Shown here piece after piece: positions 15,327-31,632 of a stretch of 64,000 nt of DNA. This stretch comes from Candidatus Micrarchaeia archaeon (lineage in GTDB: Archaea; Micrarchaeota; Micrarchaeia; Micrarchaeales; Micrarchaeaceae), in NCBI GenBank assembly GCA_049965095.1, contig JBMFWR010000003.1, positions 5,786 to 69,785 of the forward strand. Reading direction: 5' to 3'. The notes beneath the pieces were generated by a model. It did not search any database, was not told where the DNA came from, and was given only the letters and a program-made list of their open reading frames with translations. A program made the translations under genes and the position numbers. Each line of letters starts with the position of its first letter. Within the stretch, counting starts at the first letter, position 1.

Positions 15327-15346
15327 AGATATTTAAACCTTTCTAT
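15327..15346 (-). promoter_or_regulatory. BRE/TATA-like motif, identical 20-mer to 10085..10104
   Basis: Plus strand AGATATTTAAACCTTTCTAT = minus strand ATAGAAAGGTTTAAATATCT. It lies about 60 nt upstream of the minus-strand gene starting at 15271 and in the divergent spacer before the pilin-like operon. Orientation is ambiguous because TTTAAA is palindromic. Confidence 0.35.
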
Positions 15347-15441
15347 AAAACATGCAAAATAAATTAAAAGTATGTTTCCGCATTGCTTTGGCATGCCAAC
15401 ACTACCTATTAATTTCTTTTTTGTTATATATTATTGATTTG

Positions 15442-18150
15442 ATGGCTAAAAGCACAGGCAAGGCACAGATAGCGCTTGAGTTCCTTATAGTTTATTCTTT
15501 CGTGCTGGTGATATTTGTAATACTTTTTGCGCTTGTTGCTTCACAGCGTGCAACTACCCTTAGCCAGCAGGAATATTCGGAATTGCAGCTTCAGGTGCAG
15601 AACATAGTGTATTATATAGACCAAGCAATGAACTCTGGAAGCGGTTATTATGCTTCTGTGCCTGTCCTTGGCGCAATAGGGGGCATACCCTATAATATAT
15701 CGATCTCAAGCTCTGGCGTTGTAATAGGATACATGCACATAGGAACCCAGAATATAACCACCTACGGATTTAGCGGAGGAAGGGACCTTGTTGTTAACGG
15801 CACGCTGGCACAGCAGGGAAATGGGGTAGCTGTTTACCAGGTTCCGATATACAAGGGTTTCATAACAGTTGCAAATTCACACGGCAGCATTTACATAGAC
15901 GAGAAGCCACAAAGCACCTTAAGCCTGACAGAAAATATAAACGTTCAAGCGCTCGCAAACCAGAAAGTAGGCAGCTTCGACGGCACCAACTACGCGTATG
16001 GCAGCCTTACCTCATATTTTGGCGGAAACCACCAAGTCACTGCTGTTGCATGGGCTTACATAACACCAAACGCGAATGGCCCTATCTTTGGAGTGACAAA
16101 TACACCACCAGGAAGCGGATGGAACAAGCCTTTTATTAGTGAGAAAGGCCTTGTTGTATTTGGCTTGATATGGGGTGCAAATTCCAACAACCCAATTAGC
16201 TACCCAATACAACATCCCGGATGGCACATGCTTGCCATAACATACAATCCCTCAGGTGCAGGAACTGAAACATTTTACGTTGACGGTGTAGAGGTAAGGA
16301 GCGGATCTGGGCGGTATTCATCATTTGGATCTACTGATTACTGGACAACCTATATAAGCGGGGCTAAGCCAGGAGGTATGAATAACTATTATAATAGTAT
16401 GATAGCAGATGTGCAAGCATATTCATCTGCGCTAACTCCGCAGCAGATAATGGAACTTTATAAGGAAGGCATTGCCGGAGCACCTGTGTCTAATACCATA
16501 ATATCATGGTGGCCGCTTAACGGCAATTTAAACGATTATAGCGGCAATGGCAATAATGGCATCGGCTCTGGCATGCTGTATGGAAGCGTCATGCAGTTCG
16601 AAGCAAAAGCGATAAATGGCGCAGGAAGCAACTCTTCATATGTACCAGTTGGATTTGTTACTGGCAAGGGAACGGTTGGTACAACAAGCAGCTTTATAGC
16701 CAATAATACAAACAGCACCGGAGCATTGAGTGAGTATATTACCGCAAATCAGGTTGTAGTAGGTGCTACCAATTTGACTATAACTGCATTCAATGGCAAT
16801 TCCACAATGGCTGCAAACCTGGTAGGGTGGTGGCCCCTTGATACTGGTTATGGCAGCACGTTCTATGATTTGAGCGGCTATGGTGCAACAGGATCAGGCT
16901 CCAATGTCAACTGGGTGCCAAAACCACTTGACGTGATTGCAGTAACAAGCGCGCAATTTAATAATGGTGCAAGTGCGATAACTGGTAATCTTTTGTTTGG
17001 CACTTCAAACCTTACAATCTCTGCATGGATTAACAACACAGGCACTGGCAGCTATTGGCAGAACATAGCTGAATTGTACGGCAATCAGAACACAAAAGAG
17101 ACTCTTGACATTGGAGTAACTGCTGCAAGCGGAAATGCTGTAATAAGATGGAGCAACCAAGCAAACTCTTTCCAAAACCAACCGGCTGGTGGCATAATAA
17201 AACCAAATACTTGGTATCTTGTTACTGGAGTATGGAATGGAAATAAGAACACGCTAAGCATTTACATTAATGGTACGCTTGTGGCAACAGGCGCCGGCAA
17301 CGGCACCATAGCCACTTTTGTAAACGGTTTTAATATAGGGGGTGCATATCTAGGAATGAGCACCTTCAATGGCCTCATCAGCAATGTGCAGGTATACAAT
17401 ACTGCGCTAACTCCACAGCAGATACTGCAGGAATACAAACTGGGTATAACTGCAACTCCAATAAGCCAGGCAGGTTTGATAGGTTGGTGGCCTTTGGCAG
17501 GAAATGCAAATGACTATTCATCAAGCGGCAATGATGGCCTTGCACAAGGAGTAGCTTATAAAAATACATATTTCACTGGCCATTCAAATCAAGAAGCAAC
17601 TTATTTTAATCCTGCACAAACATCTTGGATTGCTTCTACGAAATCGCCGCTTCCGAATGGCACCAACGTAGCAACGATAGTTGCATGGATTTATCCGAAG
17701 CCATTACAAGGTGACTCCACATATGCAGGAATTGTAAGGATAGACGGGGAAGCGTGCACGGGCAAAGGTTTGCTTTTAAGTCTGCAGGGCAGCAGCGGCC
17801 ATCTGAGCATGGCTACGTGGTGCAATGACTTTGTCCCGAATTCAGGACCAAAAATTGTTTACAACGCATGGAACTTTGTAGCTGTGGTATTGAACAAGCA
17901 ATCAGTTTCGTTGAACGCAAATGGCCAGTGGATAAACGGCACGCTACCAAATCTGCCAAGCCTCCAGGCAAATGCAGGCGCATGCCCTTATAACTTTGCA
18001 ATAGGCTCAACAGATTGCCCTGGAAGGCTATTCAATGGAAGCATAGAGGATGTTCAAATTTACAATGCTGCATTGACCCCTGCAGAGATAGAGGCACTTT
18101 ACCAGCAGGGTTTGCCTCCATTTGACAAGTTAAATATTTCATTGGGATAG
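15442..18150 (+). CDS. giant pilin-like protein: class III signal peptide + three LamG/concanavalin-like modules
   Basis: Start set at ATG 15442: MAKSTGKA/QIALEFLIVYSFVLVIFVILFALV (basic leader, KA-Q, E at +5, about 20 hydrophobic residues). Three module ends of type ..VQ.Y..ALTPQQI..LYK.G.., each followed by ..WWPL.GN.NDYSG.GN.G. S/T/N/G/Y-rich with very few K/R. Confidence 0.8.
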   Translation: MAKSTGKAQIALEFLIVYSFVLVIFVILFALVASQRATTLSQQEYSELQLQVQNIVYYIDQAMNSGSGYYASVPVLGAIGGIPYNISISSSGVVIGYMHIGTQNITTYGFSGGRDLVVNGTLAQQGNGVAVYQVPIYKGFITVANSHGSIYIDEKPQSTLSLTENINVQALANQKVGSFDGTNYAYGSLTSYFGGNHQVTAVAWAYITPNANGPIFGVTNTPPGSGWNKPFISEKGLVVFGLIWGANSNNPISYPIQHPGWHMLAITYNPSGAGTETFYVDGVEVRSGSGRYSSFGSTDYWTTYISGAKPGGMNNYYNSMIADVQAYSSALTPQQIMELYKEGIAGAPVSNTIISWWPLNGNLNDYSGNGNNGIGSGMLYGSVMQFEAKAINGAGSNSSYVPVGFVTGKGTVGTTSSFIANNTNSTGALSEYITANQVVVGATNLTITAFNGNSTMAANLVGWWPLDTGYGSTFYDLSGYGATGSGSNVNWVPKPLDVIAVTSAQFNNGASAITGNLLFGTSNLTISAWINNTGTGSYWQNIAELYGNQNTKETLDIGVTAASGNAVIRWSNQANSFQNQPAGGIIKPNTWYLVTGVWNGNKNTLSIYINGTLVATGAGNGTIATFVNGFNIGGAYLGMSTFNGLISNVQVYNTALTPQQILQEYKLGITATPISQAGLIGWWPLAGNANDYSSSGNDGLAQGVAYKNTYFTGHSNQEATYFNPAQTSWIASTKSPLPNGTNVATIVAWIYPKPLQGDSTYAGIVRIDGEACTGKGLLLSLQGSSGHLSMATWCNDFVPNSGPKIVYNAWNFVAVVLNKQSVSLNANGQWINGTLPNLPSLQANAGACPYNFAIGSTDCPGRLFNGSIEDVQIYNAALTPAEIEALYQQGLPPFDKLNISLG

Positions 18151-18153
18151 AAT

Positions 18154-18699
18154 ATGAAAGCGCAATTTTGGAGCTTTGACGTGATATTCGCGGTGGTAAT
18201 ATTTAGCATAGCCATTACAATACTCGCATTTACTTGGTATAATATAAACAACCAGCTTGCACTTGCTTATGGGGATAGTGCCACGATAATGCAGCTGCAA
18301 GCTGAATCGCTTGCAGATACGCTAATGTCGCAAGGAAACCCACCAAACTGGTACAGCATAATAAATACTACAAATGTGAACACATGGAACGATACGAGCG
18401 TTGGCATAGGAGAGGGAAATGGCAATGGCATATCTTCAGCCAGGCTGTATGCCCTAATGTCAATGGCAAGCAACAACTATCAAGCCACAAAGCAAGCCCT
18501 TGGCATAGGATTTGATTATTATATAAGGATAAACAGCACAGAAAATTCAGGCGCCAACATAAATATAGGGATAGGATCAAACCCCGCGACAGGGCATGCG
18601 CTTACCGTATACGTAGAGAAAAGGAGCAGCATTCTTGACGGTACTCCAGTGCAGGTTACGATAGATTTATGGACCAATACGTCGCTGGGTTTGGAGTGA
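18154..18699 (+). CDS. pilin-like protein (class III signal peptide), candidate structural pilin
   Basis: MKA/QFWSFDVIFAVVIFSIAITILAF then a 150-aa N/S/T-rich domain. 181 aa is normal pilin size. Starts 4 nt after the upstream stop. Confidence 0.65.
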   Translation: MKAQFWSFDVIFAVVIFSIAITILAFTWYNINNQLALAYGDSATIMQLQAESLADTLMSQGNPPNWYSIINTTNVNTWNDTSVGIGEGNGNGISSARLYALMSMASNNYQATKQALGIGFDYYIRINSTENSGANINIGIGSNPATGHALTVYVEKRSSILDGTPVQVTIDLWTNTSLGLE

Positions 18700-18703
18700 T
18701 TCA

Positions 18704-20884
18704 ATGAAAAATCTAAAAGGATTCATATTTACACTTGATGCAATATTCGCGCTTATAGTTGCAGTGGCTGGCATATCAATTTTGCTTTATGTGCACTCCA
18801 CAGTAAATACAGCATATTCAATACCGACTTCTGAGGCATCAAGCATTCTTGAAAACCTTATAAGCATGAAAGCAAGCGATTTGTACTCTTTGAGCATCGT
18901 GAACAATGTTTCAATGGGTAGCGAAGCAACTGCCACTTGGCCACAATTTGGAGGCAACCAGAGCATTGCATCTCATAGCGCCAAAGGGCCAAAAAATGCT
19001 TATACTATATTTGCATTCAACACAAGCAACGCTGTAATCCAATCTGTGATAGCAGGAAGAGGCATGGTTTTCGGCCCTGCAGGCAGTTATATATTCGCGC
19101 TTAATGGAACCAACGGCAGGCTCTTGTACACTATAAATGGAGGAAGCACTATTGATGGTGTGCCTGCCCTTTACAACAACGAGATTATCCTTGCAAATGC
19201 AAGCGGTTTCATTGCTGGGGCAAGCATATACAATGGCACGAAGTTGTGGAGCCACAACATAGGCGTCTCAGTTGACACTCCAATAGAAATTGAAGATGGC
19301 TATATAGCATTTGGAGCGGGTACAGGGATTTACCTGGCAAATCCTTATAATGGCAGCATAATGGCTTCAAATACTGTCGCAGTCACATCACCTCTTGAAG
19401 CCTCAGCACCTGTGTATTTTGATGGCGAGTTTCTAGTCACAGGGACGGGCTCTGGGGTGCAGAACTATATTTATGCGTATGCACTGGCAGGAAGCAGTCT
19501 TGTGCAGCTATGGAAATTACCATTAAGTACATCGCCGAGCACAGCACCTATGATAGCAAACAATACAATAATAGTAGGCAGCGGCAGCAGTCTTTATGCA
19601 ATATCTGCAAGCGGTACAGTAGTATCAAGCTATAGCTTGAGCGCCCAAGTGCTCGGACTCTCCTACGATGGCAGCAACATATACGCGGAAACTTCAAGCA
19701 GCATACAGGTGTTTAATTCATCAGGTGCCATGATATTCTCGCAGCCTACAGTAGCTCAAAACCAGTATACAACGCCTTCCACCGCACAAGGCAACATATA
19801 CACGCTTATCAACGGCTACATATACCAAGCGTACAATATTTCAACAGGCGCAATGCTTTGGAATACTACACTACCAACGCAGAGCGAATCTACTTATGCC
19901 AACATTGCACTGGCATATGGAAATGCATATATTGCAAGTGGAACAATGATTTATGCGCTTGGAAGCGTGCACATCAAGCCATATGAAAGCATGCTTGATG
20001 CGATTGTGCAGATGTACTTGAATGGGCAAGGAGAACTTGCAAACAACATACTGCACACAATATACCCTTCACAAAACATTGGAATATACATAAACAACAC
20101 ATACGGGCCATCTCTTAATATGGCAACTTTCAATGGTAGCTATTCATCTTCGGGCTTTTCATCTACAAGCTATATATTCGGGACAAGCCACCACATAGGA
20201 GGAACAAACTACAATTTTACCGTGACAATGTGGGTTAAACCTTATCCAAATCCTAGCACTGCAAACAGCTGGACCATACCGTTTTTCTCTATGGAAAGCT
20301 ACCAGGCGCTTGGATTCCTAAGCAGCGGTACTGGTCTGGTGCTACACAGGTGCACAAGCGCGGATACAGAAGGCTATGTCAAAGGCATGAGCCCCTCTAG
20401 TGTGTTCAACAACCAGTGGCATTTTGTCGCGGTATCGGTCTCATATCCAAATTATTATTGGCAGTTTGATGGCAACAATGTAACGGACTCAAACACAAAT
20501 TCATATTCAGGCAACTACCACATATCGATAGGCGCGCAATACATGCAATGCGACGGCAACCAGTTCAACGGCCAGATTGCAAATGTGCAGCTTTACAATA
20601 CGGCTCTAAAGCCCCAGCAGATAATGAGTATATACAAGGAAGGTATATTCGGCACGCCGATAGGCTACCAGAACCTAAGTGGGTGGTGGCCCCTTACTGA
20701 TAGCTTTAATGATTACAGTGGTAGTTATGGAGTTTCGGTAGCAAAAAGCGTTGCATCAAGTGTTGGACCATTGCCGCCAACGCTTTCTAACGCTTATCTA
20801 ATAAGCAAGGCATCAATGCCGTTAAGTATAAACGTAAACGGAACAAGCCACGTTTACAACGTGAGTGTGATAGTATGGCGCTAA
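18704..20884 (+). CDS. pilin-like N terminus + PQQ/BamB-like beta-propeller repeats + C-terminal LamG module
   Basis: MKNLKG/FIFTLDAIFALIVAVAGISILLY. Then WPQFGGN... and repeated blades of the type ..IFALNGTNGRLLY.., ..IYNGTKLWSHN.., ..LYAISASGTVV.., ..YNISTGAMLWN.., ..MIYALGS. The C-terminal module ends IANVQLYNTALKPQQIMSIYKEG...LSGWWPLTDSFNDYSG. Confidence 0.8.
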   Translation: MKNLKGFIFTLDAIFALIVAVAGISILLYVHSTVNTAYSIPTSEASSILENLISMKASDLYSLSIVNNVSMGSEATATWPQFGGNQSIASHSAKGPKNAYTIFAFNTSNAVIQSVIAGRGMVFGPAGSYIFALNGTNGRLLYTINGGSTIDGVPALYNNEIILANASGFIAGASIYNGTKLWSHNIGVSVDTPIEIEDGYIAFGAGTGIYLANPYNGSIMASNTVAVTSPLEASAPVYFDGEFLVTGTGSGVQNYIYAYALAGSSLVQLWKLPLSTSPSTAPMIANNTIIVGSGSSLYAISASGTVVSSYSLSAQVLGLSYDGSNIYAETSSSIQVFNSSGAMIFSQPTVAQNQYTTPSTAQGNIYTLINGYIYQAYNISTGAMLWNTTLPTQSESTYANIALAYGNAYIASGTMIYALGSVHIKPYESMLDAIVQMYLNGQGELANNILHTIYPSQNIGIYINNTYGPSLNMATFNGSYSSSGFSSTSYIFGTSHHIGGTNYNFTVTMWVKPYPNPSTANSWTIPFFSMESYQALGFLSSGTGLVLHRCTSADTEGYVKGMSPSSVFNNQWHFVAVSVSYPNYYWQFDGNNVTDSNTNSYSGNYHISIGAQYMQCDGNQFNGQIANVQLYNTALKPQQIMSIYKEGIFGTPIGYQNLSGWWPLTDSFNDYSGSYGVSVAKSVASSVGPLPPTLSNAYLISKASMPLSINVNGTSHVYNVSVIVWR

Positions 20885-22794
20885 AAAATAAGTTATTGCA
20901 TACAAGAAAGGGCATACTTCTAACGCTTGTAACTATAGTCTTGCTTATATTGATGGTTGGGGAGCTTATGTTATACACAATACTGAACATAGAATTCAAC
21001 ACTCTTGCAGTACAGTCAAGTATATCTTCTACAACCAAAGCTTTCTCTATATCTGTGGAAAGTGCAATGCCAGGATACCTGGAAAATAGCCTGCGCAACG
21101 CCATATATGCGCTTGCAACATACGAAGAAACACCATCTCTAAGGCACTGGCACTTTATAAACAACACAGGATATGCAATAGAGTCATTGATGTACAACGG
21201 CACCATATATGGAACAAATATGAGCAACTACATGAATGGAACCATAGCATCATATGAAAATTCTGTCAATGAAGAAGCTGCAATAGAGGGCTTTTCTTCC
21301 TCATTTACAAACACTTCAATTTTTGTGTTCCAGAGAGGCCCTTTCAACATAAGTGCCACCTATACGGGCTTGCTCACAACAAATTCCGTTTATGGCATAT
21401 TTACATACCCAATAAACGTGACTATAACAATACCGCTTAATGGCACGCCTGACTTGTATAGTGCGGAAGCAGCAAGTCCTAAAATCATAAAAGCAGCGCG
21501 AAAATTGCCCAGTGCTTTGCTCATAGGTGGAATGCATGCTTCTTCTGCTAATACAATGAGCACTGCATTCGTTTATGGCACGATTGTGCTGAACAACGGC
21601 CCAACGTGCAGCAGTGTACCTAGCCAATTCCAAAATCCATATTTCATACTTGCAATGCCTAACGCAAACGATATAAATAGCAACCTGTGCAATATGAGCG
21701 GCCTTGTTACCTCTACATTAAATTCCACGCCGCCAGCAAAGCCGTATTTGGTGTACCCCCAAAGCATATTCAATTACATAACAAACGGCACAAAAGTGCT
21801 GCTGCAGGGCCCAAGCAAATCGCTGCTAAGCATAGCACCAATAAAAGAAGCAATGCAGGAAGGCTACTATTACCCTTCACCATATGCGCCTCCTTACATG
21901 GATTGGGCAAACAGCACGTTTGAGCGATCACAATATGGGATCGTATCTTTTAATATTTTGCACAAAGAAGTCGCAAATTTAAATGCTAATGGTGCAACAG
22001 CACCTAGAACTTTTATAAATGTACCATCAGTAACTCCATTAAGTTATCCGATGTTTACATACACAGCATGGTTTTATCCAACATATCCAGAAAGTTATTC
22101 AAGAGTTCTTGCCACAAGCGCTGGGGATTCAGGGACAATCGAGCTATCCGTTGCTAATACAAATTATATATACATAAATGGTTATGGAACTAGCGGCTGG
22201 CTAAATACTGGAGCTAGCGTACCCATGGATGGTTGGAGTTTCATTGCTGGTGTATATAATGGAAGTGGCTATAGGGTTTATCTCAACGGTAGGCTTATTT
22301 GGAGCAAGGTAACCTCGTTATCAGGGGCCACTTCTGGCAATTTTCAAATTGGAGATACAACAGCATATGGGAATAGTGGCAACCAATTTTTTGGGAGCAT
22401 TGGAAATGTTCAGATATATAATACAGCACTTAATCCAGAACAGCTATACAATCTTTATATTAGGGGAATTAATGGACTACCAGAGACAAATTCCTCATTG
22501 ATAGGCTGGTGGCCTTTGGCAGGAAATGCAAATGATTATAGCGGCAATGGCAATAATGGCATTTCCTATAATGTTTCATACTCTGGCTTATATAATTACA
22601 GTGGGGATTCGCTACTTTGGGGCACATACTATTCCCTGCCCAACCAAGTGGAGGGGATAAACTGCATGAATGCAACTTCATGCGGCAAGCTCCCAGAGGA
22701 AAGCCTCTATCTTGGAAACCTTACTCTCTGGTCAAATTATACAGCAACAGAGAATGAGACAACAGCACTTGGCCTTCAGAATGCAACAAGGTAA
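20875..22794 (+). CDS. pilin-like/TM-anchored protein with C-terminal LamG module
   Basis: MALKNKLLHTRKG/ILLTLVTIVLLILMVGELMLY. The C-terminal module ends IGNVQIYNTALNPEQLYNLYIRG...LIGWWPLAGNANDYSGNGNNG. Overlaps the upstream gene by 10 nt. Confidence 0.75.
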   Translation: MALKNKLLHTRKGILLTLVTIVLLILMVGELMLYTILNIEFNTLAVQSSISSTTKAFSISVESAMPGYLENSLRNAIYALATYEETPSLRHWHFINNTGYAIESLMYNGTIYGTNMSNYMNGTIASYENSVNEEAAIEGFSSSFTNTSIFVFQRGPFNISATYTGLLTTNSVYGIFTYPINVTITIPLNGTPDLYSAEAASPKIIKAARKLPSALLIGGMHASSANTMSTAFVYGTIVLNNGPTCSSVPSQFQNPYFILAMPNANDINSNLCNMSGLVTSTLNSTPPAKPYLVYPQSIFNYITNGTKVLLQGPSKSLLSIAPIKEAMQEGYYYPSPYAPPYMDWANSTFERSQYGIVSFNILHKEVANLNANGATAPRTFINVPSVTPLSYPMFTYTAWFYPTYPESYSRVLATSAGDSGTIELSVANTNYIYINGYGTSGWLNTGASVPMDGWSFIAGVYNGSGYRVYLNGRLIWSKVTSLSGATSGNFQIGDTTAYGNSGNQFFGSIGNVQIYNTALNPEQLYNLYIRGINGLPETNSSLIGWWPLAGNANDYSGNGNNGISYNVSYSGLYNYSGDSLLWGTYYSLPNQVEGINCMNATSCGKLPEESLYLGNLTLWSNYTATENETTALGLQNATR

Positions 22795-22833
22795 ATGACC
22801 TTCCCTAGTATGTTCAAACGTGTACGTCGTAAT

Positions 22834-22864
22834 ATTGCTTTAATGCTCTGAGTTATAAAGCAAT
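22834..22864. terminator. hairpin between convergent pilin and pilus-assembly operons
   Basis: ATTGCTTTA-(13 nt)-TAAAGCAAT, a perfect 9-bp stem in the 253-nt convergent spacer. Confidence 0.25.
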
Positions 22865-23047
22865 GCACTTATACTCTTTTAGTTATTATAAAAATACATA
22901 TTACAATTATTCACTACAACACGATGGATAAGAGACCAAACATTATCGTTAAAAAGTACATACTAGATAATATATTGTGTAGCCCTAAATGGTGGCAAGC
23001 AAGTATTACTGCACAATGTTAATTACAAGTTGCTATGCTCGTGTTTG

Positions 23048-24040
23048 TCATGCTCCAGTGCCTATGCTTGCAAACAGTGCACCGATTACGGAATGCATTA
23101 TTATGAATATTACCAAGCCCACAACAATGAATACTGGAAGGTATTTCATTCCTTTAATCACAGACCCTGACATAATTGCGCTCATTATCAGCGCGGCGAA
23201 AGCGGTTATTATTACTATGGCTGCTATTGAAAAGTCATGATAAACTTGCGGGCTTATTTTTGGCGGGCTGGGCTTCAGGAAAGACAAACCGGTAGTGGGC
23301 AGTCCGCCAGGGTTGCTTGCCAATATTCCCTTCCACACAGTATCTGTGACAATAATCATCTGGCTAGTGAGTCCATAAAGCACCGGCGCCGCTACAAGGC
23401 CGGCAAATGCAATAAAGATGCTGTACATGAAAAGCTGTCCTGAAACCTCCTTCTGGATCATCTGCTGGTTTCTCATGTCCTTTGATATCTGCTCTATGAG
23501 GTCGGCCATCGCTCCTCCGAATCTCATCGCTTCTATCATCATCCTTATTGCGTGGCTAAGCTGATACGATCTGTAGCGTGTGCCAAGTTTTCTCAGCGCG
23601 TCTTCAAAATTTTCTCCACCGAATACACTCCTGCTCGTTATCTTTATGTCTGTTGTGATAGGTTCAAATTCAGGCCTTGCAGCAAGAAGCATTGCCCTGT
23701 CAAGCGCGATTCCGCTCCTCAGGTTTGCCGAAACGATCTGAAGATAATCAGGCAGCACTATTTCCATTTTTGTCTTCCTTTTGTCTATCATGTATTCAAG
23801 CAGCATGTAGAGCACTAGAAGATACACTGCTGCAGAGCCTATGCCTCCAAAAAACGCGATAAGCGCACCCATCTTGAGCAGGTATATGAGGAAAGTGACA
23901 ACTATAAAAATGCCAATGCTTCCGATTATTGCAATCTGCAGGAATTTCTCAACGGTGATCTTTAGCCCTGCCAGGTCTATCTCGCTCGACACGAACAGCG
24001 CGACGCGCCTTGACACAAGCCTTTCGAATTTTATTGCCAT
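23048..24040 (-). CDS. type II secretion system F-domain membrane protein (TadC/PilC-like)
   Basis: 330 aa. TM - cytoplasmic helical domain (LPDYLQIVSANLRSGIALDRAM...AIRMMIEAMRFGG) - TMs, the typical T2SSF/FlaJ-half topology. Confidence 0.8.
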   Translation of the reverse strand: MAIKFERLVSRRVALFVSSEIDLAGLKITVEKFLQIAIIGSIGIFIVVTFLIYLLKMGALIAFFGGIGSAAVYLLVLYMLLEYMIDKRKTKMEIVLPDYLQIVSANLRSGIALDRAMLLAARPEFEPITTDIKITSRSVFGGENFEDALRKLGTRYRSYQLSHAIRMMIEAMRFGGAMADLIEQISKDMRNQQMIQKEVSGQLFMYSIFIAFAGLVAAPVLYGLTSQMIIVTDTVWKGILASNPGGLPTTGLSFLKPSPPKISPQVYHDFSIAAIVIITAFAALIMSAIMSGSVIKGMKYLPVFIVVGLVIFIIMHSVIGALFASIGTGA

Positions 24041-24044
24041 AATA

Positions 24045-25085
24045 TCACATGCTGAAGACAGGCCTTGAGCTTCTTATCATCATCAGGAACACTATCTGCA
24101 GGAATACCAAGCCAACTAGCACAAAAGCAAGCAATGATGTCGTAACAGTAAACAGCGCTATGAATGTGGTCAGTATTGTGACAACAGCTATTCCCATGCT
24201 CGGCAGTATTATTCCGAAAAGCATGTAGAACATTGCTATTGCATTGAGCCTCTGGCCGTATCTTCTAAGCTCTATGATGCGTTCCTGCGATATCTGGTCT
24301 ATTACGCTCTGTAAAGCGGAAACGACATCAGCTCCTGCTCTTATGCTCACAGAAGCTTGTAGCATTATCCTCCTGAATGAGAGGCTCTTTGTTTCAGCAA
24401 CAGTCTCATCTATTGCATCCTCAAGAGGCATGCCAAGCTGCACCCTCTCTACTATCCTGCTGAATTCCTTGCTTGCGGCACCATAGCCAGTACTTATTGA
24501 CGCCAAGGCGTTGAAAAGGGGCATGCCTGAACGCAGCGATATTATCATATCTCTTGCCGCAAAAAGTATGTCACGCTCAACACCCTTGGAATCTGCAACG
24601 CTTTTCCTTGCAGGAAAATTGAGAAATGTTTGGAATGATATCCTGAATACAACTATACCTAGAAGTATAGCAAAAAGTGCGCTGTATGCCATTGACAAAC
24701 CAACACGGGAGAACAGTAGGAATACTGTAAGGGCTATTATCACGCCGAAAATCGAAGATGCTATAAGCATCCTCTTTATGAAATCGTAAAGCGTGCCTTT
24801 TATGCCGTGCTCCTTCAAAGCGGTTTCAAGACCTTTGTGCTTCGCACCTATGCCTTCAATGTAAAGTTTGAAGGCACTCTGCTTGCGTGCTCCTGCAACG
24901 GGTTTTTGAAAAGGCTGGATTTGGGGCTCTGCAGCCTGCACAGCTTGAGCCTGAGGCTGCTGAACAGAAGTTTTTTGCGGGGCTTGGGGTTTTCTTGAAG
25001 GCCTTGAAAATATTCCAGGCTTCGGCTCCAGCTCTATTGTCTGGTCGCCCACCTTTATTACGCGCTTCTTGCTCCCAAACATCAT
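24045..25085 (-). CDS. type II secretion system F-domain membrane protein (TadB/PilC-like)
   Basis: 346 aa. After a Q/P-rich N terminus it has the same TM - helical domain (DILFAARDMIISLRSGMPLFNAL...) - TM layout. Its ATG overlaps the upstream stop (ATGA). Confidence 0.8.
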   Translation of the reverse strand: MMFGSKKRVIKVGDQTIELEPKPGIFSRPSRKPQAPQKTSVQQPQAQAVQAAEPQIQPFQKPVAGARKQSAFKLYIEGIGAKHKGLETALKEHGIKGTLYDFIKRMLIASSIFGVIIALTVFLLFSRVGLSMAYSALFAILLGIVVFRISFQTFLNFPARKSVADSKGVERDILFAARDMIISLRSGMPLFNALASISTGYGAASKEFSRIVERVQLGMPLEDAIDETVAETKSLSFRRIMLQASVSIRAGADVVSALQSVIDQISQERIIELRRYGQRLNAIAMFYMLFGIILPSMGIAVVTILTTFIALFTVTTSLLAFVLVGLVFLQIVFLMMIRSSRPVFSM

Positions 25086-25798
25086 TCATTACCTCCTGGC
25101 AGCAGTGCCAAAGCTTCTATCAGTCTTTCGTCCCTAAGATTTATTAATGACTGCTCCAGCTCGCTTTTCGAAGCTGTGCCCTTCTTTTTCATATCATTGA
25201 CAACTTGATTAAGCCCTGTAAGTTCCTCTACCACTATCTGCATGTGCTCATTATCGAATACGTTCTCCTTCAAGCCTTCTATTATGCGCTCCAGCTCTGC
25301 TATCTGATCAGCAAGCGTAAGATTTGGAAGCACCAGCTGGCTTGTATTGACGCGCTTTATTTTTATACCACCAAGTTTCTTTATTGGGCCGAGGTTCCTT
25401 ACAATCGAGCCTAGCTCAACTTTTGCCTTCTGCTCCGGCGCCTGTTGTACTGTTGCAGCTTCGTTTATGTGCCCGCTTTCACGGATGCCTTGAACTTCTA
25501 CTTGAGATGGTTCTGCATTAGCAGACGCAATAGGGCTTTGCACTATTGGCTGTGCATATGAAGCCTGCTCAACTCCAGAAGTAATCAAGTGTGATGGAGC
25601 TCTTGGTTTCTGCTCTTCTGCTACTTCCCTGAATTTCTGCACGTTCATGCTCGATATCATTTTCAAAAGATCATTGTAGGTGACCTTGCTCTCGCCATGG
25701 CCTTCCATAATACTGGTTATATCGACAAAAGCAGTATCGCTCTTTTTGGATTCGCGCTCCACCTGCTCCACGAGCTCCAGTAGGTCTTTGTATTCCAT
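25082..25798 (-). CDS. hypothetical protein in pilus operon
   Basis: 238-aa ORF tightly packed between the ATPase and TadB-like genes. Acidic helical ends flank a Q/A/P-rich middle. No recognisable motif. Confidence 0.55.
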   Translation of the reverse strand: MEYKDLLELVEQVERESKKSDTAFVDITSIMEGHGESKVTYNDLLKMISSMNVQKFREVAEEQKPRAPSHLITSGVEQASYAQPIVQSPIASANAEPSQVEVQGIRESGHINEAATVQQAPEQKAKVELGSIVRNLGPIKKLGGIKIKRVNTSQLVLPNLTLADQIAELERIIEGLKENVFDNEHMQIVVEELTGLNQVVNDMKKKGTASKSELEQSLINLRDERLIEALALLPGGNE

Positions 25799-25811
25799 CT
25801 ATAAAACACCA

Positions 25812-27317
25812 TCATTTAAACATGTTGTGGTCGTAAGGCACATCGTTGTTTACTATATCTAGCACCTTTGACTTTCTTGCGTAATAGCTAGCCACAACCA
25901 AGCCCGCATCGTTCACATCTATGACGTTGTGCTTAACCATCCAATTCAGCACTTTGCTTTTCTCCTCTATCTCAGCACTTATTTCAGTTTTCGTAAGCCC
26001 GCCGTATAGGTTAAGCGTTTCAAGCAGGCGACTCATGTCATTTATGTGCGTAAAAGTGTCATCGTGCATGTTCCACTTGTAGAGCACGTTTACATCTCCA
26101 TCCCTGAGTATTTCACCGAACTCTAATACTCTTCTTATGCCCTTGCTCCTGTGCCTAAACAAGACAACAACGCCGCCAAGTGCGTTGAGCATTATTTTCG
26201 GTATAGCTATTGGTGGGTTAGTCATTCTTACAATTGTATCCTGGGCATTATCGGCGTGGACCGTGCCGTATACGGCGTGACCCGTGTGTATGGCTTCGAA
26301 CAGGGTTTCCGCATCTTTTTCGGTTCTTATTTCTCCTACTACAACTATATCGGGCCTTTGCCTCAATGCGTTTATCATCAAATTGTAAAGTGTTATTTCA
26401 CCCTTGCCTTCTGGATTAGGTTGCCTGCTTATCATTGGTACCCACTGCAGAAATGATGGCAATGTAAGCTCTCTTGTTTCCTCTATTGATATTACCCTTC
26501 TGTTTGCAGGATAGAATATGCTGGAAGCATTGAGAAAGCTTGTTTTTCCGCTTGCTGTACCTCCAGAGAACAGCAGGCTTATTTCGTACTGTATGCAAAG
26601 CCACACCAACGAAGCGAGCTCCACGCTTATTGAGCCATTCTTTACAAGCGCAGGCATTGTCCACGGGTTCTTTGAAAACTTTCTTATTGTGATGGTGTTG
26701 CCGCTCTGCGATACTGGGTAAAGTGTAGCATTAACTCTCGAACCGTCAGGCAGCTCAGCGTCCATCAGCGGCACAAGGTTGTTTATCTCCCTGCCGACAC
26801 GCCTTCCTATCTGCTCCGATTGCTCGTAGATGCTGTCTTCGCTTTGCGGCATTATGTTTGTCTTGCACCACCCGTATTTCTTGTGGAATACAAATATGAA
26901 GCTCTTTGATCCATTTACAGTAACCTCTTCGAGATTTTCATCCGCAAGAGGGCCTTCCAAATCGCCAAGGCCAAGCATCATGTTGAGTATGTATGATATG
27001 AGAAGCTTCTTTGTATCGCTCGAAGTGCCTGGCAGATATTTGTCGATGAGCAAGCTGCTTGCCTGTATGTATTTGTTGTTGAGCTCTTCGGCATATATTT
27101 TGTCTTCTACCCTGGAAGGATCTACAGGCACCAGCGCCATGAGCTCCTTCCTTAGCGAAAGCAGGAGCAGCTTTGTGGCTTCCCCTATACCAGGTATAGT
27201 TACTTCGTATGTGGGCACGAAGTCAGCGCTCTGGTATATTCTAATGTGCACAGGCATGCCATGTGTTTCTAGATCATATTCAGCCAAAATATTTTGCACA
27301 TTATCTTTTTCGGCCAT
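25812..27317 (-). CDS. type IV pilus/archaellum-family secretion ATPase (PilB/FlaI/VirB11 superfamily)
   Basis: Walker A GGTASGKTS, Walker B RPDIVVVGEIR, His box GHAVYGTVHA. 501 aa. Confidence 0.9.
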   Translation of the reverse strand: MAEKDNVQNILAEYDLETHGMPVHIRIYQSADFVPTYEVTIPGIGEATKLLLLSLRKELMALVPVDPSRVEDKIYAEELNNKYIQASSLLIDKYLPGTSSDTKKLLISYILNMMLGLGDLEGPLADENLEEVTVNGSKSFIFVFHKKYGWCKTNIMPQSEDSIYEQSEQIGRRVGREINNLVPLMDAELPDGSRVNATLYPVSQSGNTITIRKFSKNPWTMPALVKNGSISVELASLVWLCIQYEISLLFSGGTASGKTSFLNASSIFYPANRRVISIEETRELTLPSFLQWVPMISRQPNPEGKGEITLYNLMINALRQRPDIVVVGEIRTEKDAETLFEAIHTGHAVYGTVHADNAQDTIVRMTNPPIAIPKIMLNALGGVVVLFRHRSKGIRRVLEFGEILRDGDVNVLYKWNMHDDTFTHINDMSRLLETLNLYGGLTKTEISAEIEEKSKVLNWMVKHNVIDVNDAGLVVASYYARKSKVLDIVNNDVPYDHNMFK

Positions 27318-27325
27318 TCAAATCA

Positions 27326-28606
27326 TTATTTTGTAAGTTTTTTAGAGACATCCTGCACGTTGCCTTTTATTTTTGATATGGAGTTCTTCGTGCGCTTGCT
27401 CTTTTTCTCTATTGCTTTGACTTTGCTTATCTTGCTTGATATAGGCTCATTCTTAGCTACATCAAGAGCGTGCAGCTGTAGCTCCAATGATTCTATCTCT
27501 TTCTTGGTCGCATCAATCTGCTTTTGTATCTCTTCAACTTCGCCCTTTAGCCCGCTTATCTTGTCGCTCACCTGGGCGGTCTCTCCAAACGAGCTCTTTA
27601 GCTCATTTATTTTGCTTATCAGCTCTGCTGAATTTTTATTGACTTCATCCTTGCCGCTAAGCAGCGTTTTATGAACCTTTTGGTAAAAGTCGTTGAACTC
27701 TGTTTTTTCTATGTTCAATGCGCGCCTGGCGCTTTCCCTGTGCAGCTTGAAGTTGTTGAGCTCTGCAACAGTGCCTTTAACTTCTCTTCCCTTTTCCTGT
27801 ATCTGCTTTGAAACGGCATCAAGCTCTGAATCGCCAGCCTTGAGCTGGTTTATTATGGCCTGCTTCTTTGCAAAAGCCTGCTTTTTCAGCTCTTCTGCCT
27901 GCATGTCTATATTCTTAAAAAGGGCTTTGAAGGATTCGTCAACGCTCGCCTCAATAGCGTGTATTGCGCTGTGAGCCTCGTTTATCTCTTTTGTCAAGGC
28001 TATAATCTTCTGTTTGCTTTCCTCTACGGTGCGGTCAAACGCGGTGGTGCTTAGCGTATCAACCTTCTTTGAAAGCTCGTCCGCTTTCTTGTTGACTTCT
28101 TCATACGTGCTTTCTACTTTCTTTGTCAAATCATCAAAGCGCTTCATGCTGGAAGTTGCTATGTTATTGTATTTGTTGATCGGCACAAGAAGGGATTCTA
28201 TCCCTGGGAGCGAACGCCTGTATAGCTCTTCTATTTGGGATATGTTTACGTTTATGTTTTTTATTGCCTCCTGCAGCTTGTCCAAAGACACTGCTTGAGA
28301 GGATAGATCTTCTTCTATTATGCTTTTTTGGTCGTTAAGCTTTTTCTCTGCAACCTCCACCTCTTCTTTCCCTATCTGGGAGTAGGTTACGAACATTTTG
28401 CCCATTTCATAGCTTATTTTTACTATACCCCCACTTTCAAGTATCTTGGCCCATGATTCTACAACTTTTGGGTCTACAGACAAAGACAATGCAATACTGT
28501 TTAGATCCATTTTGCCCTTTTCTTTTAGCAGATCGACTAGGTTGTCTATTGAGGTTTTCGTCGCATTTGCCTGCTCCTTATCCATGTCACCGGCCACCAC
28601 AATCAC
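27326..28606 (-). CDS. hypothetical coiled-coil protein, first gene of pilus operon (N-terminal wHTH-like segment)
   Basis: 426 aa. The N terminus ...LVDLLKEKGKMDLNSIALSLSVDPKVVESWAKILESGGIVKISYEMGKMFV is wHTH-like, followed by about 330 aa of continuous heptad-rich sequence. Start is GTG 28606 or ATG 28585. Confidence 0.6.
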   Translation of the reverse strand: MIVVAGDMDKEQANATKTSIDNLVDLLKEKGKMDLNSIALSLSVDPKVVESWAKILESGGIVKISYEMGKMFVTYSQIGKEEVEVAEKKLNDQKSIIEEDLSSQAVSLDKLQEAIKNINVNISQIEELYRRSLPGIESLLVPINKYNNIATSSMKRFDDLTKKVESTYEEVNKKADELSKKVDTLSTTAFDRTVEESKQKIIALTKEINEAHSAIHAIEASVDESFKALFKNIDMQAEELKKQAFAKKQAIINQLKAGDSELDAVSKQIQEKGREVKGTVAELNNFKLHRESARRALNIEKTEFNDFYQKVHKTLLSGKDEVNKNSAELISKINELKSSFGETAQVSDKISGLKGEVEEIQKQIDATKKEIESLELQLHALDVAKNEPISSKISKVKAIEKKSKRTKNSISKIKGNVQDVSKKLTK

Positions 28607-28620
28607 ACATATAATTGAAT

Positions 28621-28644
28621 ATTAATATTTTTAACCTTATCTAT
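28621..28644 (-). promoter_or_regulatory. BRE/TATA-like motif upstream of pilus-assembly operon
   Basis: Minus strand ATAGATAAGGTTAAAAATATTAAT is the same family as ATAGAAAGGTTTAAATATCT. It lies 20-60 nt upstream of the candidate starts. Confidence 0.35.
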
Positions 28645-28749: not shown

Positions 28750-29445
28750 TTACAGCACATTCCTGTAAAACATTGAGAACATGAGCGCTATGAAAATCAT
28801 AAATATTATTGATGTTATTGGTATGCCCGTAAAAAGGAACATCAATACGAATATGATACCCATTGAAATCATATACGCGTTTTTATTCCATGCGAGTACC
28901 TTGCTCCCGTCAAGAGGGGGTATTGGAAGCATGTTGAAGAAAGCAAGAAGTATGCTTATGAATATGGTAAACGAAAATGCATTATATAGGTAACTTCCTC
29001 TCTGTACTCCAGATAATATCAACAGTGCAAGGAAAAAGGCGAAAACGGCAAAGTTTGTCAGAGGCCCAGCAATCGATACTATTCCTTCCTCGTGCTTTGT
29101 GAACCTGTTTGTATATATCATTGTCGCTCCAGGGATTCCAAGAAGGAAGCCGAAGAATCCAGTTGTGACAGTGATCATAAGCCCCATCGTTGAAGACCTA
29201 AAGGCAGCCACAGCACCAAAATGCTCTGCAACAAACTTGTGCATCAGCTCGTGCAGTATGAAGCTCAGAGTAACGCCTAGTGCAACTATCGGCAACAAGT
29301 ATATGAAATGAGATATAAAGCTGCTCGCATTGGCCATGCCTTCTATTCCGCCATCAAGAGTCATCGTGAAAGCGAATATCAGGGCTATGTCTGCAATTAT
29401 TATCTCCTTTGCTTCAAGCTTTGCGTCTATGTTCTCCCTAAGCAT
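28750..29445 (-). CDS. site-2 protease family (M50) membrane metalloprotease
   Basis: HELMHKF (HExxH) in a TM segment and NMLPIPPLDGSKV (LDG motif). Polytopic, 231 aa. Confidence 0.8.
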   Translation of the reverse strand: MLRENIDAKLEAKEIIIADIALIFAFTMTLDGGIEGMANASSFISHFIYLLPIVALGVTLSFILHELMHKFVAEHFGAVAAFRSSTMGLMITVTTGFFGFLLGIPGATMIYTNRFTKHEEGIVSIAGPLTNFAVFAFFLALLILSGVQRGSYLYNAFSFTIFISILLAFFNMLPIPPLDGSKVLAWNKNAYMISMGIIFVLMFLFTGIPITSIIFMIFIALMFSMFYRNVL

Positions 29446-29701: not shown

Positions 29702-30121
29702 ATGATGGGCAAAAACCTTTCTGGGCACGTAATTGTATGCGGTTATGGTATTTTGGGGCAGAAGGTAGTCGACGTTATGGTGGAGCACAATATACCTTTT
29801 GTGGTAATAGACATAGATTCCAAAGTTGTTGGCACAATAAAGGAATATGGCTACAATGTTGTGGAAGGAGATGCAACACATTCCAAAACACTAAGGATGG
29901 CAGGCATAGAAACCGCAAAAGCCATCGCGATAGCGCTTGACGACGACGCAAAGAACCTCTTTACGGTGCTTACGGCAAGGGATCTTAATAGCTCGATATT
30001 CATTGCGGCAAGAGCCAACGACGAATTTGTGAGGAACAAGCTTGTCGAAGCCGGGGCAGACTACGTGGTAATGCCCCATAAAGCGGCAAGCAAAGAAATT
30101 ATAGAGGAACTGCTTAAGTGA
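29702..30121 (+). CDS. soluble TrkA-N/RCK (KTN) NAD-binding domain protein
   Basis: GHVIVCGYGILGQKV Rossmann motif, ...EGDATHSKTL...A, 139 aa, no TM segment. Confidence 0.85.
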   Translation: MMGKNLSGHVIVCGYGILGQKVVDVMVEHNIPFVVIDIDSKVVGTIKEYGYNVVEGDATHSKTLRMAGIETAKAIAIALDDDAKNLFTVLTARDLNSSIFIAARANDEFVRNKLVEAGADYVVMPHKAASKEIIEELLK

Positions 30122-30125
30122 TGGA

Positions 30126-30899
30126 ATGGCGATGCCAACCGAAGCAGAGGAGGTTACAACAAGGCTTGTTCTCCTTGTGCTTGCGGCAACAATTGTAGTA
30201 GTTACGCTTTCCATTTATTACATATACGGGATAACCCATAACGCATATGCGGCTGGCTATTTTACCCTTGCTTCGCTTTTCGACTTTAGCACGGTTACAG
30301 GAAGCAGCGTGATAAGCGCTTACGCACCGCTCTATTCAAGCAGATTCTTCGGCCTCTTCGCCATTGCAATAATTGATGGCTTGGCAAAAGCGGTGCTTAT
30401 AGGTTTTGTAATTGCAGCATTCATAAACGCACTCATGGCCCTAGACCTGAGGTCCAGGATAGGGATACTCGGTACAAGGAATGCAACTAATAAAATTATA
30501 ATAGCAGGTTATTCTCAACTTGCTGAGAGGCTTGTACATGAGCTGCTTAAGAGAAAGATGCACTTTGTGATTATCGAAAAGTCTCAAGAGAAAGCGGACA
30601 TGCTTGCAGATGCAGGCTATCCTGTTGTCATAGGGGACATGACAAAAGATGAAACGTATGAAAGCATAAGGATAGCACATGCAAAAGCTATAGTGCTTGC
30701 ATCAGACAACGAGTATACAAACCTTCTCGGTGTGATAACAGTGCATCATAGGTACCCAGAGTTGCGCATCATAACAAAAGCATCGCTTGAGTCCACAGCG
30801 ACAAAAATGCACAGGGCAGGGGCTGAGCTTTGCATTGTACCAGAGGTGCTTGCCGGGATAGATATGGGTTTGAACATTTTAAAGGCAATGGCAAAGTGA
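30126..30899 (+). CDS. 2-TM channel-like membrane protein fused to RCK/TrkA-N domain (non-canonical pore loop)
   Basis: TM1 LVLLVLAATIVVVTLSIYYIY, pore-loop-like LFDFSTVTGSSV, TM2 FGLFAIAIIDGLAKAVLIGFVIAAF, then an RCK domain (IIIAGYSQLAERL...IGDMTKDE). Confidence 0.7.
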   Translation: MAMPTEAEEVTTRLVLLVLAATIVVVTLSIYYIYGITHNAYAAGYFTLASLFDFSTVTGSSVISAYAPLYSSRFFGLFAIAIIDGLAKAVLIGFVIAAFINALMALDLRSRIGILGTRNATNKIIIAGYSQLAERLVHELLKRKMHFVIIEKSQEKADMLADAGYPVVIGDMTKDETYESIRIAHAKAIVLASDNEYTNLLGVITVHHRYPELRIITKASLESTATKMHRAGAELCIVPEVLAGIDMGLNILKAMAK

Positions 30900-30903
30900 T
30901 TTG

Positions 30904-31632
30904 ATGGTTTCAGCAAAAATGGCAAGATATGAGCTTGTTGCGATAGCAATAATCATGTTTGGAGCTGCAGTATTGCTTACCATTGCAAGTGGGATAGGCC
31001 TCAAGGTGGCCCTCTTACAGAATACGCTGGGCTCGCTCGAAATAGATTATTCTCTGGTCAACTTTAACGCTGCAGAGAGCACACTGATGCTTGTTGCTGC
31101 GTTCCTTGACACAATAGTATTTGCGCTTATAACGGTAGTATTTGCAAGCATGTTCTTCAGCTTCATAACAAAAATAAACATTAGGGAGGGAATAGCAATA
31201 TCAAGGATAAAGAAGCTGAAAAACCATGTCATAATAATACCATACAACACCTTCGCACTTGAGGTTGCCAAGGGCTTATCTGGAAAAGGAAAGCATGTTG
31301 TGCTTGCAGCGAGCACCAGGAAGGAGTTCGACTTTCTTTACAGGCAGGGATTCCTTTCTGTGATAGGAGACCCAAAAGATGTTGAACTTTTTGAATCCGC
31401 AAACATTAAGGAAGCTTCGCACGTGATAGCGTGCAGCGAAAATGACATGATTAATACTCTTATTACAATAACCGCAAAAAGTGCCAACCAGCACGCCAAG
31501 ATAGTGGCCAGGGTAAGCAGCGAATCAAGCATATCAAAGCTTGGCATGGCAGGCGCATACAGGATGATAATGCCAGAGATCACCGCAGGAGAGCTTATTG
31601 GGGAAGAGATATCAAGGCGCGTCGCGCTGTAA
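30904..31632 (+). CDS. 2-TM membrane protein fused to degenerate RCK/TrkA-N domain
   Basis: Two TM segments then HVIIIPYNTFALEV...IGDPKDVELFE... The RCK fold pattern is present but the glycine motif is lost. No pore-loop signature. Confidence 0.65.
   Translation: MVSAKMARYELVAIAIIMFGAAVLLTIASGIGLKVALLQNTLGSLEIDYSLVNFNAAESTLMLVAAFLDTIVFALITVVFASMFFSFITKINIREGIAISRIKKLKNHVIIIPYNTFALEVAKGLSGKGKHVVLAASTRKEFDFLYRQGFLSVIGDPKDVELFESANIKEASHVIACSENDMINTLITITAKSANQHAKIVARVSSESSISKLGMAGAYRMIMPEITAGELIGEEISRRVAL

Follow-up and report, generated by a model that had tools for sequence, protein, structure and literature searches.

This study concerns the ways in which DPANN archaea recognise and attach to their hosts, and the part that might be played in them by a locus that combines giant pilin-like proteins with a type IV filament motor. 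The locus lies in a stretch of 64,000 nucleotides (nt) from a Candidatus Micrarchaeia archaeon (assembly GCA_049965095.1, contig JBMFWR010000003.1, positions 5,786 to 69,785), hereafter the window, and comprises a cassette of four pilin-like genes (A to D) and, running convergent to it, a machinery operon of five genes (E to I; Table 1). From its gene and domain content, N-terminal motifs, predicted folds, phylum-wide synteny and transcription in a cultivated relative, we give a probability of about 0.6 to the reading that it encodes an archaeal type IV pilus (T4P)-like filament, conserved across Micrarchaeota, whose pilin set consists of modular adhesins. The locus occurs in essentially every sampled Micrarchaeota species and is transcribed in co-culture, and its genes carry only the labels "hypothetical" or "LamG" protein in published annotations.

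Gene content and setting of the locus

The block was first singled out by a model that read the letters without database searches and described four tightly packed plus-strand genes with prepilin-type starts facing a convergent five-gene operon (the original prediction). All nine open reading frames (ORFs) were indeed found, at the coordinates and with the spacing it proposed, as were the motifs. Genes A to D are all on the plus strand, with gaps of 3 nt (A-B) and 4 nt (B-C) and an overlap of 10 nt between C and D, and genes E to I are all on the minus strand. The start of gene A is ambiguous, with in-frame starts at 15352, 15388, 15421 and 15442, and its K-A/Q site is the same whichever start is used (the slash marks the predicted cleavage site throughout).

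The window is archaeal, with an archaeal RNase P RNA and tRNAs that probably bear introns. The block is flanked by housekeeping genes (a Hel308-like helicase, TFB, a proteasome subunit, RsmA, DnaK/DnaJ/GrpE and PheT), and neither GC content nor skew shows an anomaly over the nine genes. The nine-gene block is a core chromosomal locus of a DPANN (Micrarchaeota) archaeon. A genomic island, the idea raised in the paper on the related Micrarchaeon Mia14, was ruled out for this window by the unremarkable GC content and skew, the housekeeping flanks and the phylum-wide synteny described below.

Prepilin-type N-termini of the cassette proteins

Each of the four cassette proteins begins with a short leader and K-A or K-G, followed by about 20 hydrophobic residues. 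The N-termini read MAKSTGKA/QIALEF in A, MKA/QFWSFD in B, MKNLKG/FIFTLD in C and MALKNKLLHTRKG/ILLTLV in D, the last leader ending in TRKG. In bacterial pilus assembly, an acidic residue near position +5 makes a helix-helix salt bridge, and the glutamate at +5 of A and the aspartates at +6 of B and C fit this role. D has no acidic residue at +5 or +6; a conserved glutamate lies deeper in its helix (E30).

These positions were examined in 196 orthologues (47 of A, 66 of B, 49 of C and 34 of D). Position -2 is K or R in 194/196 sequences, including 46/47 for A and 49/49 for C, and position -1 is G, A or S in 169/196. By gene, position -1 is A in 21, G in 8, S in 6 and L in 12 of the A orthologues, G in 38 and A in 11 of those of C, and G or A in all 34 orthologues of D and in 51/66 of B. 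Leader length ranges from 2 to more than 20 residues, and conservation starts exactly at +1. Since the K/R-G/A pair and the hydrophobic segment are kept in about 80 species despite such variable leaders, the pattern goes beyond chance. The reading of the four N-termini as probable prepilin signals is well supported in silico, by sequence conservation and by the structure models described below.

A fifth class III-like N-terminus was seen outside the cassette, in a 494-amino-acid (aa) protein that starts MQKA/QSAIEFLSTYAFMILIISIALLLLF (QSAIEF) and is encoded 17 kb from the cassette, adjoining RsmA. This protein has a DUF2341 match just over cutoff, 10 cysteines, 10 N-glycosylation sequons and a low K+R content, and no detectable homology to the N-terminal module of A.

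Modules and predicted folds

The original prediction described lectin-like LamG modules in A, C and D and a beta-propeller in one of them, and proposed hidden Markov model (HMM) searches and AlphaFold modelling as checks. Both bore it out: Laminin_G_3, PQQ, T2SSE and T2SSF matches were returned by Pfam, and the models contain an N-terminal helix in B and D and a jelly roll in D. The modules of A, C and D match PF13385, a family of jelly-roll beta-sandwich fold, with E-values of 1e-14 to 3e-52, and in A they are preceded by an N-terminal module of about 210 aa.

For D, the AlphaFold2 model (mean predicted local distance difference test score, pLDDT, 76.5) shows a helix at residues 11-85, more helices and three long strands, which together form a pilin-like alpha/beta part to about residue 187, followed by beta domains. 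The jelly-roll model matches pentraxins, the LamG domain of PAPP-A and carbohydrate-binding modules (CBMs), with E-values from 1e-12 to 1e-8 and template-modelling (TM) scores of about 0.7 on the target; among these matches are the putative carbohydrate-binding protein BACOVA_03559 of Bacteroides and the sialic-acid-binding NanA CBM40 with sialyllactose. The model confirms a lectin-like (concanavalin A (ConA)/pentraxin-like) fold for the D module, with "lectin" here naming a predicted fold class. The number of LamG modules differs among orthologues: those of D extend 360-1092 aa beyond the predicted cleavage site (a contig end truncates the shortest), and the longer ones bear more LamG modules.

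B is the most conserved of the four proteins, and its linkage to the machinery is the tightest. Its relatives form 88 clusters, all from Micrarchaeota, in which conservation begins exactly at the glutamine, and an identical entry (100%) exists from a "Candidatus Micrarchaeia archaeon" metagenome-assembled genome (MAG). The AlphaFold2 model of B (pLDDT 84) has a helix at residues 8-57, a helical loop region and a four-stranded beta-sheet. A generic type IV pilin topology is thus predicted by the models of both B and D. A profile search of 1.84 billion representative proteins returned 890 matches at E ≤ 1e-3, about 160-190 aa long, which start K-G/Q-x-x-S-x-D with the glutamine at +1 invariant and the aspartate at +6 nearly so; 18 of the 55 distant members sampled match DUF7287 in Pfam. 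B is thus one member of a pilin-like family that is widespread and uncharacterised and has a distant relationship to DUF7287; its predicted head is without a solved structural relative.

Profile comparison of the N-terminal modules links B and C over about 90 residues (hhalign probability 94%, E = 1.2e-7; hmmsearch 5.8e-8). The hhalign comparisons of A-B, A-C, A-D, B-D and C-D were not significant, so that A to D are not demonstrably one paralogous family. All four have the composition of exported acidophile proteins: per 100 aa they contain 1.8-3.3 sequons, where the cytoplasmic proteins of the window reach 1.0 at most, and their K+R content is 2.5-4.1%, compared with 10-17% in those proteins.

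The assembly machinery

The machinery operon encodes a PilB/FlaI/GspE2-family ATPase (H), two TadC/PilC-family platform proteins (E and F), an acidic orphan (G) and a coiled-coil protein (I). H carries the Walker A motif GGTASGKT at aa 252, and its closest solved relative is A. fulgidus GspE2 (2OAP, 1.9e-63), followed by FlaI (5.8e-54) and CpaF (1.8e-44). Among the 120 matches listed for H, identity is 66-98%, and those with names are mostly Candidatus Micrarchaeota or Micrarchaeia. F has an N-terminal extension rich in Q, P and A. These sequence matches identify the operon as a true assembly module for an archaeal type IV filament.

G always lies between the ATPase and platform genes, a position kept in 49 loci at a median identity of 36%, and is presumed to be an accessory subunit. 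Sequence and profile searches of the PDB found no relative of either G or B. I is kept in position and poorly in sequence; a weak Sul12a-like match at aa 21-116, under cutoff, possibly marks an N-terminal winged-helix domain.

Conservation across Micrarchaeota

A profile of B retrieved relatives in 107 species-representative genomes, the best 80 of which were kept as loci. These are labelled Micrarchaeota nearly throughout, and the remaining ones resemble mislabelled bins. The order A-B-C-D convergent on E-F-G-H-I recurs both in these loci and in a second set fetched through the ATPase H. Genes E, F and H lie convergent downstream of B in 49 of the 55 loci that extend at least 10 kb past the B start, a result that passes the test set with the original prediction, under which a lack of co-conservation of the two operons among relatives would have counted against it. 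A is upstream of B in 60/63 loci, and C and D are downstream in 61/65. The outer flank on the A side differs between loci (ribosomal genes, Hel308, CBS proteins), and the nine genes therefore behave as a unit. Median identities are 67% for H, 58% for E, 57% for F and 50% for B, and 43%, 35% and 34% for the N-terminal modules of A, C and D.

The variant loci are informative about B. In two of them (L058, 9992-16746, and L068, 6042-6891) the locus contains none of A, C and D, and B immediately adjoins the machinery, which makes B the pilin with the closest coupling to the motor. In a third (L062, MAG MAS4.bin50, 6532-10531), beside TadC-like genes, several genes for proteins of 90-170 aa precede B, some with the N-termini KA/QLSLEF, RA/QISLEV and KA/QFATFE, and a 447-aa protein matches the N-terminal module of A (E = 8e-25) without LamG. 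This locus looks like an un-grafted or ancestral pilin set. All three exceptions fit a history in which pilins came first and LamG modules were grafted onto them later.

Transcription in a cultivated relative

In the cultivated relative Ca. Micrarchaeum harzensis A_DKE, the locus (L049 in our set) corresponds to Micr_00441-00449, and all nine genes are transcribed (Krause et al. 2022, Supplementary Data S5). In co-culture, the coiled-coil gene I has the highest value of the nine, at 5.0 transcripts per million (TPM); the "CpaF" ATPase (arCOG01819) stands at 2.5, F (arCOG01812, TadC) at 2.0, E (arCOG01811, TadC) at 1.6, the orphan at 1.5 and the four cassette genes at 0.69-0.92. None of the cassette genes is labelled as a pilin in the A_DKE annotation.

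A second T4P locus of A_DKE (Micr_00422-00431) lies about ten genes from the LamG-pilin locus, preceding RsmA (Micr_00433), and is transcribed about ten-fold less. It encodes a FlaI-type ATPase, a 68-aa Flp-like pilin and several small hypothetical proteins. No counterpart of this locus was seen in the window.

Weighing the filament reading

Several observations count against a pilus-like filament, and they bear on different alternatives. No curated pilin or class III signal HMM (Pfam, NCBIfam) matches A to D, and a Pfam scan of the four N-termini alone at E ≤ 10 returned no pilin or class III family. Of the class III signals in the original prediction, the motif (now seen to be conserved in orthologues) and the helix in the B and D models stand, and the call, lacking any curated match, rests on motif, conservation, predicted fold and context. 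What we take to be the FlaFind-style pattern is strictly followed by A and D only. Position -1 is L, M or V in 12/47 orthologues of A and 15/66 of B, which is unusual for known prepilin peptidases. Comparison of the B model with the PDB by Foldseek found no solved pilin alike, the best match being ribosomal protein S3 at an insignificant TM score of about 0.25. As the original prediction had noted, the window holds no prepilin peptidase: Peptidase_A24 matched none of its ORFs of at least 150 aa. In relatives such peptidases are encoded elsewhere in the genome, as Micr_00634 (arCOG02300, "EppA/PulO"), away from the locus in A_DKE, and as the FlaK-like Mia14_0570 in Mia14 (PMC5498576). Finally, 6/55 loci have no adjacent machinery.

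Among the orthologues in L012-L091, the -1 variants occur in a sub-lineage, with starts such as MKL/QFWSFD and MKL/QLALEY, and affect A and B only, never C or D. They suggest that the peptidase of those species has a changed specificity or that no cleavage takes place there.

The missing HMM matches, the -1 variants and the six cassettes without adjacent machinery would suit A to D being ordinary type II (N-terminally anchored) or S-layer-associated adhesins, left unprocessed and independent of the ATPase, with their adjacency to it a matter of co-regulation or history. We consider this very unlikely. Four different protein families conserve K/R at -2 and G/A at -1 directly ahead of the helix, whereas their leaders are variable, and the glutamine at +1 and aspartate at +6 persist across the wide B family. 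Moreover, the convergent layout survives in 49/55 species-level loci despite variable outer flanks, and B keeps its place next to the machinery in loci without A, C and D. A further giant surface protein of this organism, of 1590 aa, uses a Sec-type signal and a C-terminal anchor, which we count in favour of the prepilin reading of A to D.

Other observations concern polymerisation. Class III N-terminus scans of the locus and the window turned up no small protein that is obviously a major pilin. In A_DKE the B transcript (0.69 TPM) is about as low as those of A, C and D (0.70-0.92), unlike that of a typical abundant major pilin, and thus argues against B in that role. Filaments have been seen by cryo-electron tomography (cryo-ET) at contacts between A_DKE and its host, and Krause et al. 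2022, whose main text makes no mention of pili, suggest that the host makes them and do not assign them to the Micrarchaeon. An unlikely alternative that would accommodate these facts is a short membrane-anchored complex or pseudopilus under or in the S-layer, perhaps serving glycan or nutrient capture; the large functional domains borne on class III signals do recall the Sulfolobus bindosome (mentioned in PMC4858521). However, the bindosome identity was rejected for this locus, since BasE scored 125.6 bits against a cutoff of 1000 and no substrate-binding-protein domains were found. B also keeps a pilin-like helix and an acidic residue at +6, as expected for packing in a polymer. In addition, the S-layer of A_DKE lies 20-25 nm above the membrane (Krause et al. 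2022), so that a stalk or filament would probably be needed to cross this gap and the S-layer itself and to present adhesins to a host.

The remaining doubt concerns the ligand, because the LamG fold serves protein binding and other roles too. LamG and pentraxin folds bind proteins, and the structural matches of D include PAPP-A and pentraxins; A_DKE depends on biofilm (Krause et al. 2022); and a role in DNA import or in the exchange of material has been suggested for DPANN pili (PMC5498576, PMC9563170). The locus could then encode a pilus whose main role is DNA uptake or exchange, biofilm anchoring or protein recognition instead of glycan adhesion. To this we assign a small probability, as Pfam found no DNA-binding or nuclease domains in the locus, several structural matches of D are CBMs, and in the bacterial precedent this module belongs to an adhesin that binds glycans.

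A working model for a proposed modular pilus

In the filament reading, which we prefer, the four precursors would insert in the membrane through their N-terminal hydrophobic helix, and a prepilin peptidase acting in trans (of the EppA/FlaK type, as in relatives) would cut the leader after K-A/G. H would drive assembly through E and F, helped in the cytoplasm by the accessory proteins G and I, and the mature proteins would be pulled from the membrane, their N-terminal helices stacking into a filament or short stalk across the 20-25 nm space below the S-layer. B, being pilin-sized and the most conserved, would be the core subunit; alternatively, instead of B polymerising alone, a major pilin encoded in trans could be used, a common arrangement in archaea (PMC4858521). 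A, C and D would be modular pilins carrying LamG jelly rolls (and, in C, the propeller), most likely at or near the tip, where their modules may bind glycans or glycoproteins of a wall-less Thermoplasmatales host or of the biofilm matrix. The tip-most bacterial subunits GspK and PilX are without the acidic residue near +5. By analogy only, D, which has no such residue at +5 or +6, might be the tip-most subunit.

A bolder and more tentative version, which we think is rather less probable than even odds, would make the nine genes a Micrarchaeota host-recognition organelle: a filament tipped by B and the three lectin/propeller pilins, an independently evolved counterpart of the minor-pilin/PilY1 and PilABC tips. 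The thin filaments seen by cryo-ET where Micrarchaeum touches its Thermoplasmatales host would then be these pili and not structures of the host, and variation in the number and sequence of LamG modules would set host range.

With a conserved pilin cassette and a dedicated motor, the locus offers named, testable genes (Micr_00441-00449 and the peptidase Micr_00634). Built of parts of known kinds, it is a good and testable candidate for host attachment in Micrarchaeota.

Surrounding genes

The archaeal RNase P RNA, on the minus strand, scores 88 bits, just over the gathering score of 84. Two tRNA genes of about 107-110 nt were matched by Rfam and by ARAGORN not at all, and probably bear introns. 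Directly upstream of the machinery operon lies a gene for an M50 (site-2 protease-like) membrane protease, which is not a prepilin peptidase, and beyond it three successive TrkA_N-domain genes; M50 and TrkA_N genes hold the same position in L001-L007 and in A_DKE.

The 1590-aa giant has no Pfam match, 34 sequons and 20 cysteines, and its C-terminal anchor is a transmembrane segment. Its gene adjoins that of a 591-aa lysine-rich protein with an N-terminal membrane segment. The two adjoin the pilus operon in L001-L007 too, and in A_DKE they correspond to Micr_00434 and Micr_00435; they may encode a further surface component tied to the pilus system. The giant was ruled out as the S-layer protein, since its A_DKE orthologue is Micr_00434 and the S-layer protein of that organism is Micr_00292.

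Table 1. Features of the nine-gene locus and its surroundings (window coordinates, nt).
Feature	Position	Strand	Evidence or extent
Gene A, 902-aa modular pilin-like protein	15442..18150	+	Three Laminin_G_3 stretches, Pfam E 2.7e-52
Gene A, LamG/ConA-like modules	15964-16479, 16828-17454, 17485-18117		~aa 175-346, 463-671, 682-892
Gene B, 181-aa pilin-sized protein	18154..18699	+	No Pfam match
Gene C, 726-aa modular pilin-like protein	18704..20884	+	PQQ_2/beta-propeller 1.4e-10, Laminin_G_3 1.1e-14 (Pfam)
Gene C, propeller (best Pfam stretch)	19055-19798		aa 118-365
Gene C, LamG module	20108-20653		aa 469-650
Gene D, 639-aa modular pilin-like protein	20875..22794	+	Laminin_G_3 1.7e-21 (Pfam)
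Gene D, beta domain (model)			aa 232-383
Gene D, LamG jelly roll (model and Pfam)	22015-22476		aa 381-534
Gene E, 330-aa TadC/PilC-family platform protein	23048..24040	-	Single T2SSF domain, 1.6e-14
Gene F, 346-aa second TadC/PilC-family platform protein	24045..25085	-	Single T2SSF domain, 3.7e-17
Gene G, 238-aa acidic cytoplasmic orphan	25082..25798	-	No Pfam, NCBIfam or PDB relative
Gene H, 501-aa PilB/FlaI/GspE2-family assembly ATPase	25812..27317	-	T2SSE 2.9e-33
Gene I, 426-aa cytoplasmic coiled-coil protein, first machinery-operon gene	27326..28606	-	SMC-like coiled-coil matches
tRNA gene	2063-2172	+	Rfam
Archaeal RNase P RNA	11009-11234	-	88 bits
M50 membrane protease	28750-29445	-	
Three TrkA_N-domain genes	29702-31632	+	
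591-aa Lys-rich protein	31650-33425	-	
1590-aa giant surface protein	33491-38263	-	No Pfam match
494-aa protein with class III-like N-terminus	39973-41457	+	DUF2341, just over cutoff
tRNA gene	41768-41874	+	Rfam

Comparison with known systems

The ATPase H and the platform proteins E and F place the machinery in the type IV filament superfamily. Within it, the Tad label of the original prediction proved loose, as H resembles archaeal GspE2 and FlaI more closely than CpaF. A bacterial Tad/Flp identity was rejected (TadA scored 160 bits, its cutoff being 373, and Pfam found neither Flp nor TadZ nor a secretin), and so was an archaellum (FlaI 251 bits against 550, FlaJ 24 against 550; no archaellin or FlaH domains).

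Closer parallels are found in the euryarchaeal clade 2 and Methanococcus Epd (clade 1) pili, which likewise combine a VirB11-family archaeal ATPase with two tadC-like genes and have operon sets of predicted minor pilins, there up to about 550 aa (PMC4858521). A and B share the glutamine at +1 and the QxxxE motif of EppA substrates, and a cytoplasmic coiled-coil partner, comparable to I, is known in clade 4F archaeal loci (PMC4858521). The Epd resemblance drawn in the original prediction gains some support from the glutamine at +1 of A and B and from the arCOG02300 EppA/PulO peptidase of the cultivated relative; its other leg, the two tadC genes, is common in archaeal T4P loci, which also often have their peptidase and major pilins encoded in trans (PMC4858521). 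Unlike in the Epd system, C has F and D has I at +1, and a small major pilin of about 70 aa is found neither in the locus nor in the window, the 68-aa Flp-like pilin of A_DKE belonging to its other locus. Unlike the euryarchaeal pili, the cassette matches no arCOG or Pfam pilin family, and the link between B and DUF7287 is no more than a distant one. Makarova et al. 2016 (PMC4858521) did not describe LamG or propeller modules, DPANN archaea were not covered, and their main text places arCOG01819 in no clade.

Like the Sulfolobus bindosome, the locus pairs large functional extracellular class III-type proteins with a dedicated PilB/PilC-like pair. The bindosome cargo, however, consists of ABC-transporter sugar-binding proteins, none of which is encoded here, whereas the Micrarchaeota locus has a fixed four-gene pilin-like cassette.

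The original prediction knew of no characterised system with this composition, and here it has to be corrected: its interpretation was largely right, and the locus is less unprecedented than it thought. Golyshina et al. 2017 linked some expanded LamG-like genes of Mia14 to T4P loci (PMC5498576). That LamG/T4P locus is almost certainly the orthologous one and is probably the nine-gene MIA14_0252-0260. In the Mia14 paper the LamG proteins were assigned to a genomic island and were not described with class III signals or as pilins, and neither the small pilin B nor conservation of the four-gene cassette was reported. Full-text literature searches returned no paper describing the A to D proteins as class III proteins or pilins, nor the four-gene cassette.

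The second precedent is bacterial. In Streptococcus sanguinis, PilC is a ConA-like lectin pilin that sits in a tip complex with PilA and PilB and is stabilised by the small PilA (PMC9934059), and PF13385 is among the commonest extra modules of bacterial modular pilins, notably those of the ultra-small bacteria of the candidate phyla radiation (CPR; PMC8179133). A, C and D have the modular pilin architecture (sensu Raynaud/Pelicic), in which a pilin-like N-terminus is followed by PF13385 and, in C, by PQQ_2 as well: as in the bacterial proteins, a class III-type N-terminus and a short pilin module precede a bulky grafted module, which in S. sanguinis PilC belongs to the same PF13385/ConA-like lectin family. 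In both cases a small non-modular pilin is encoded with the large ones, and the pilin genes form an operon next to assembly genes. The differences lie in the LamG modules, of which a single protein may carry three or even more, in the propeller, which is fused to a pilin in C and in bacteria sits on the non-pilin PilY1, and in the machinery, which is archaeal here (a GspE2/FlaI-like ATPase and two half-size TadC proteins). The bacterial N-methylation motif (IPR012902/TIGR02532) has no NCBIfam or Pfam match in A to D, as expected of archaeal signals, so the likeness is one of design and not of membership in the published set.

The survey that defined modular pilins used this bacterial motif, and archaea were outside its scope (PMC8179133). 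Our results extend the "modular pilin" design, so far defined by a bacterial sequence motif, to archaea. They also point to a parallel between the frequent PF13385 pilins of CPR bacteria and those of DPANN archaea, two ultra-small symbiotic radiations that both appear to have grafted PF13385 modules onto pilins.

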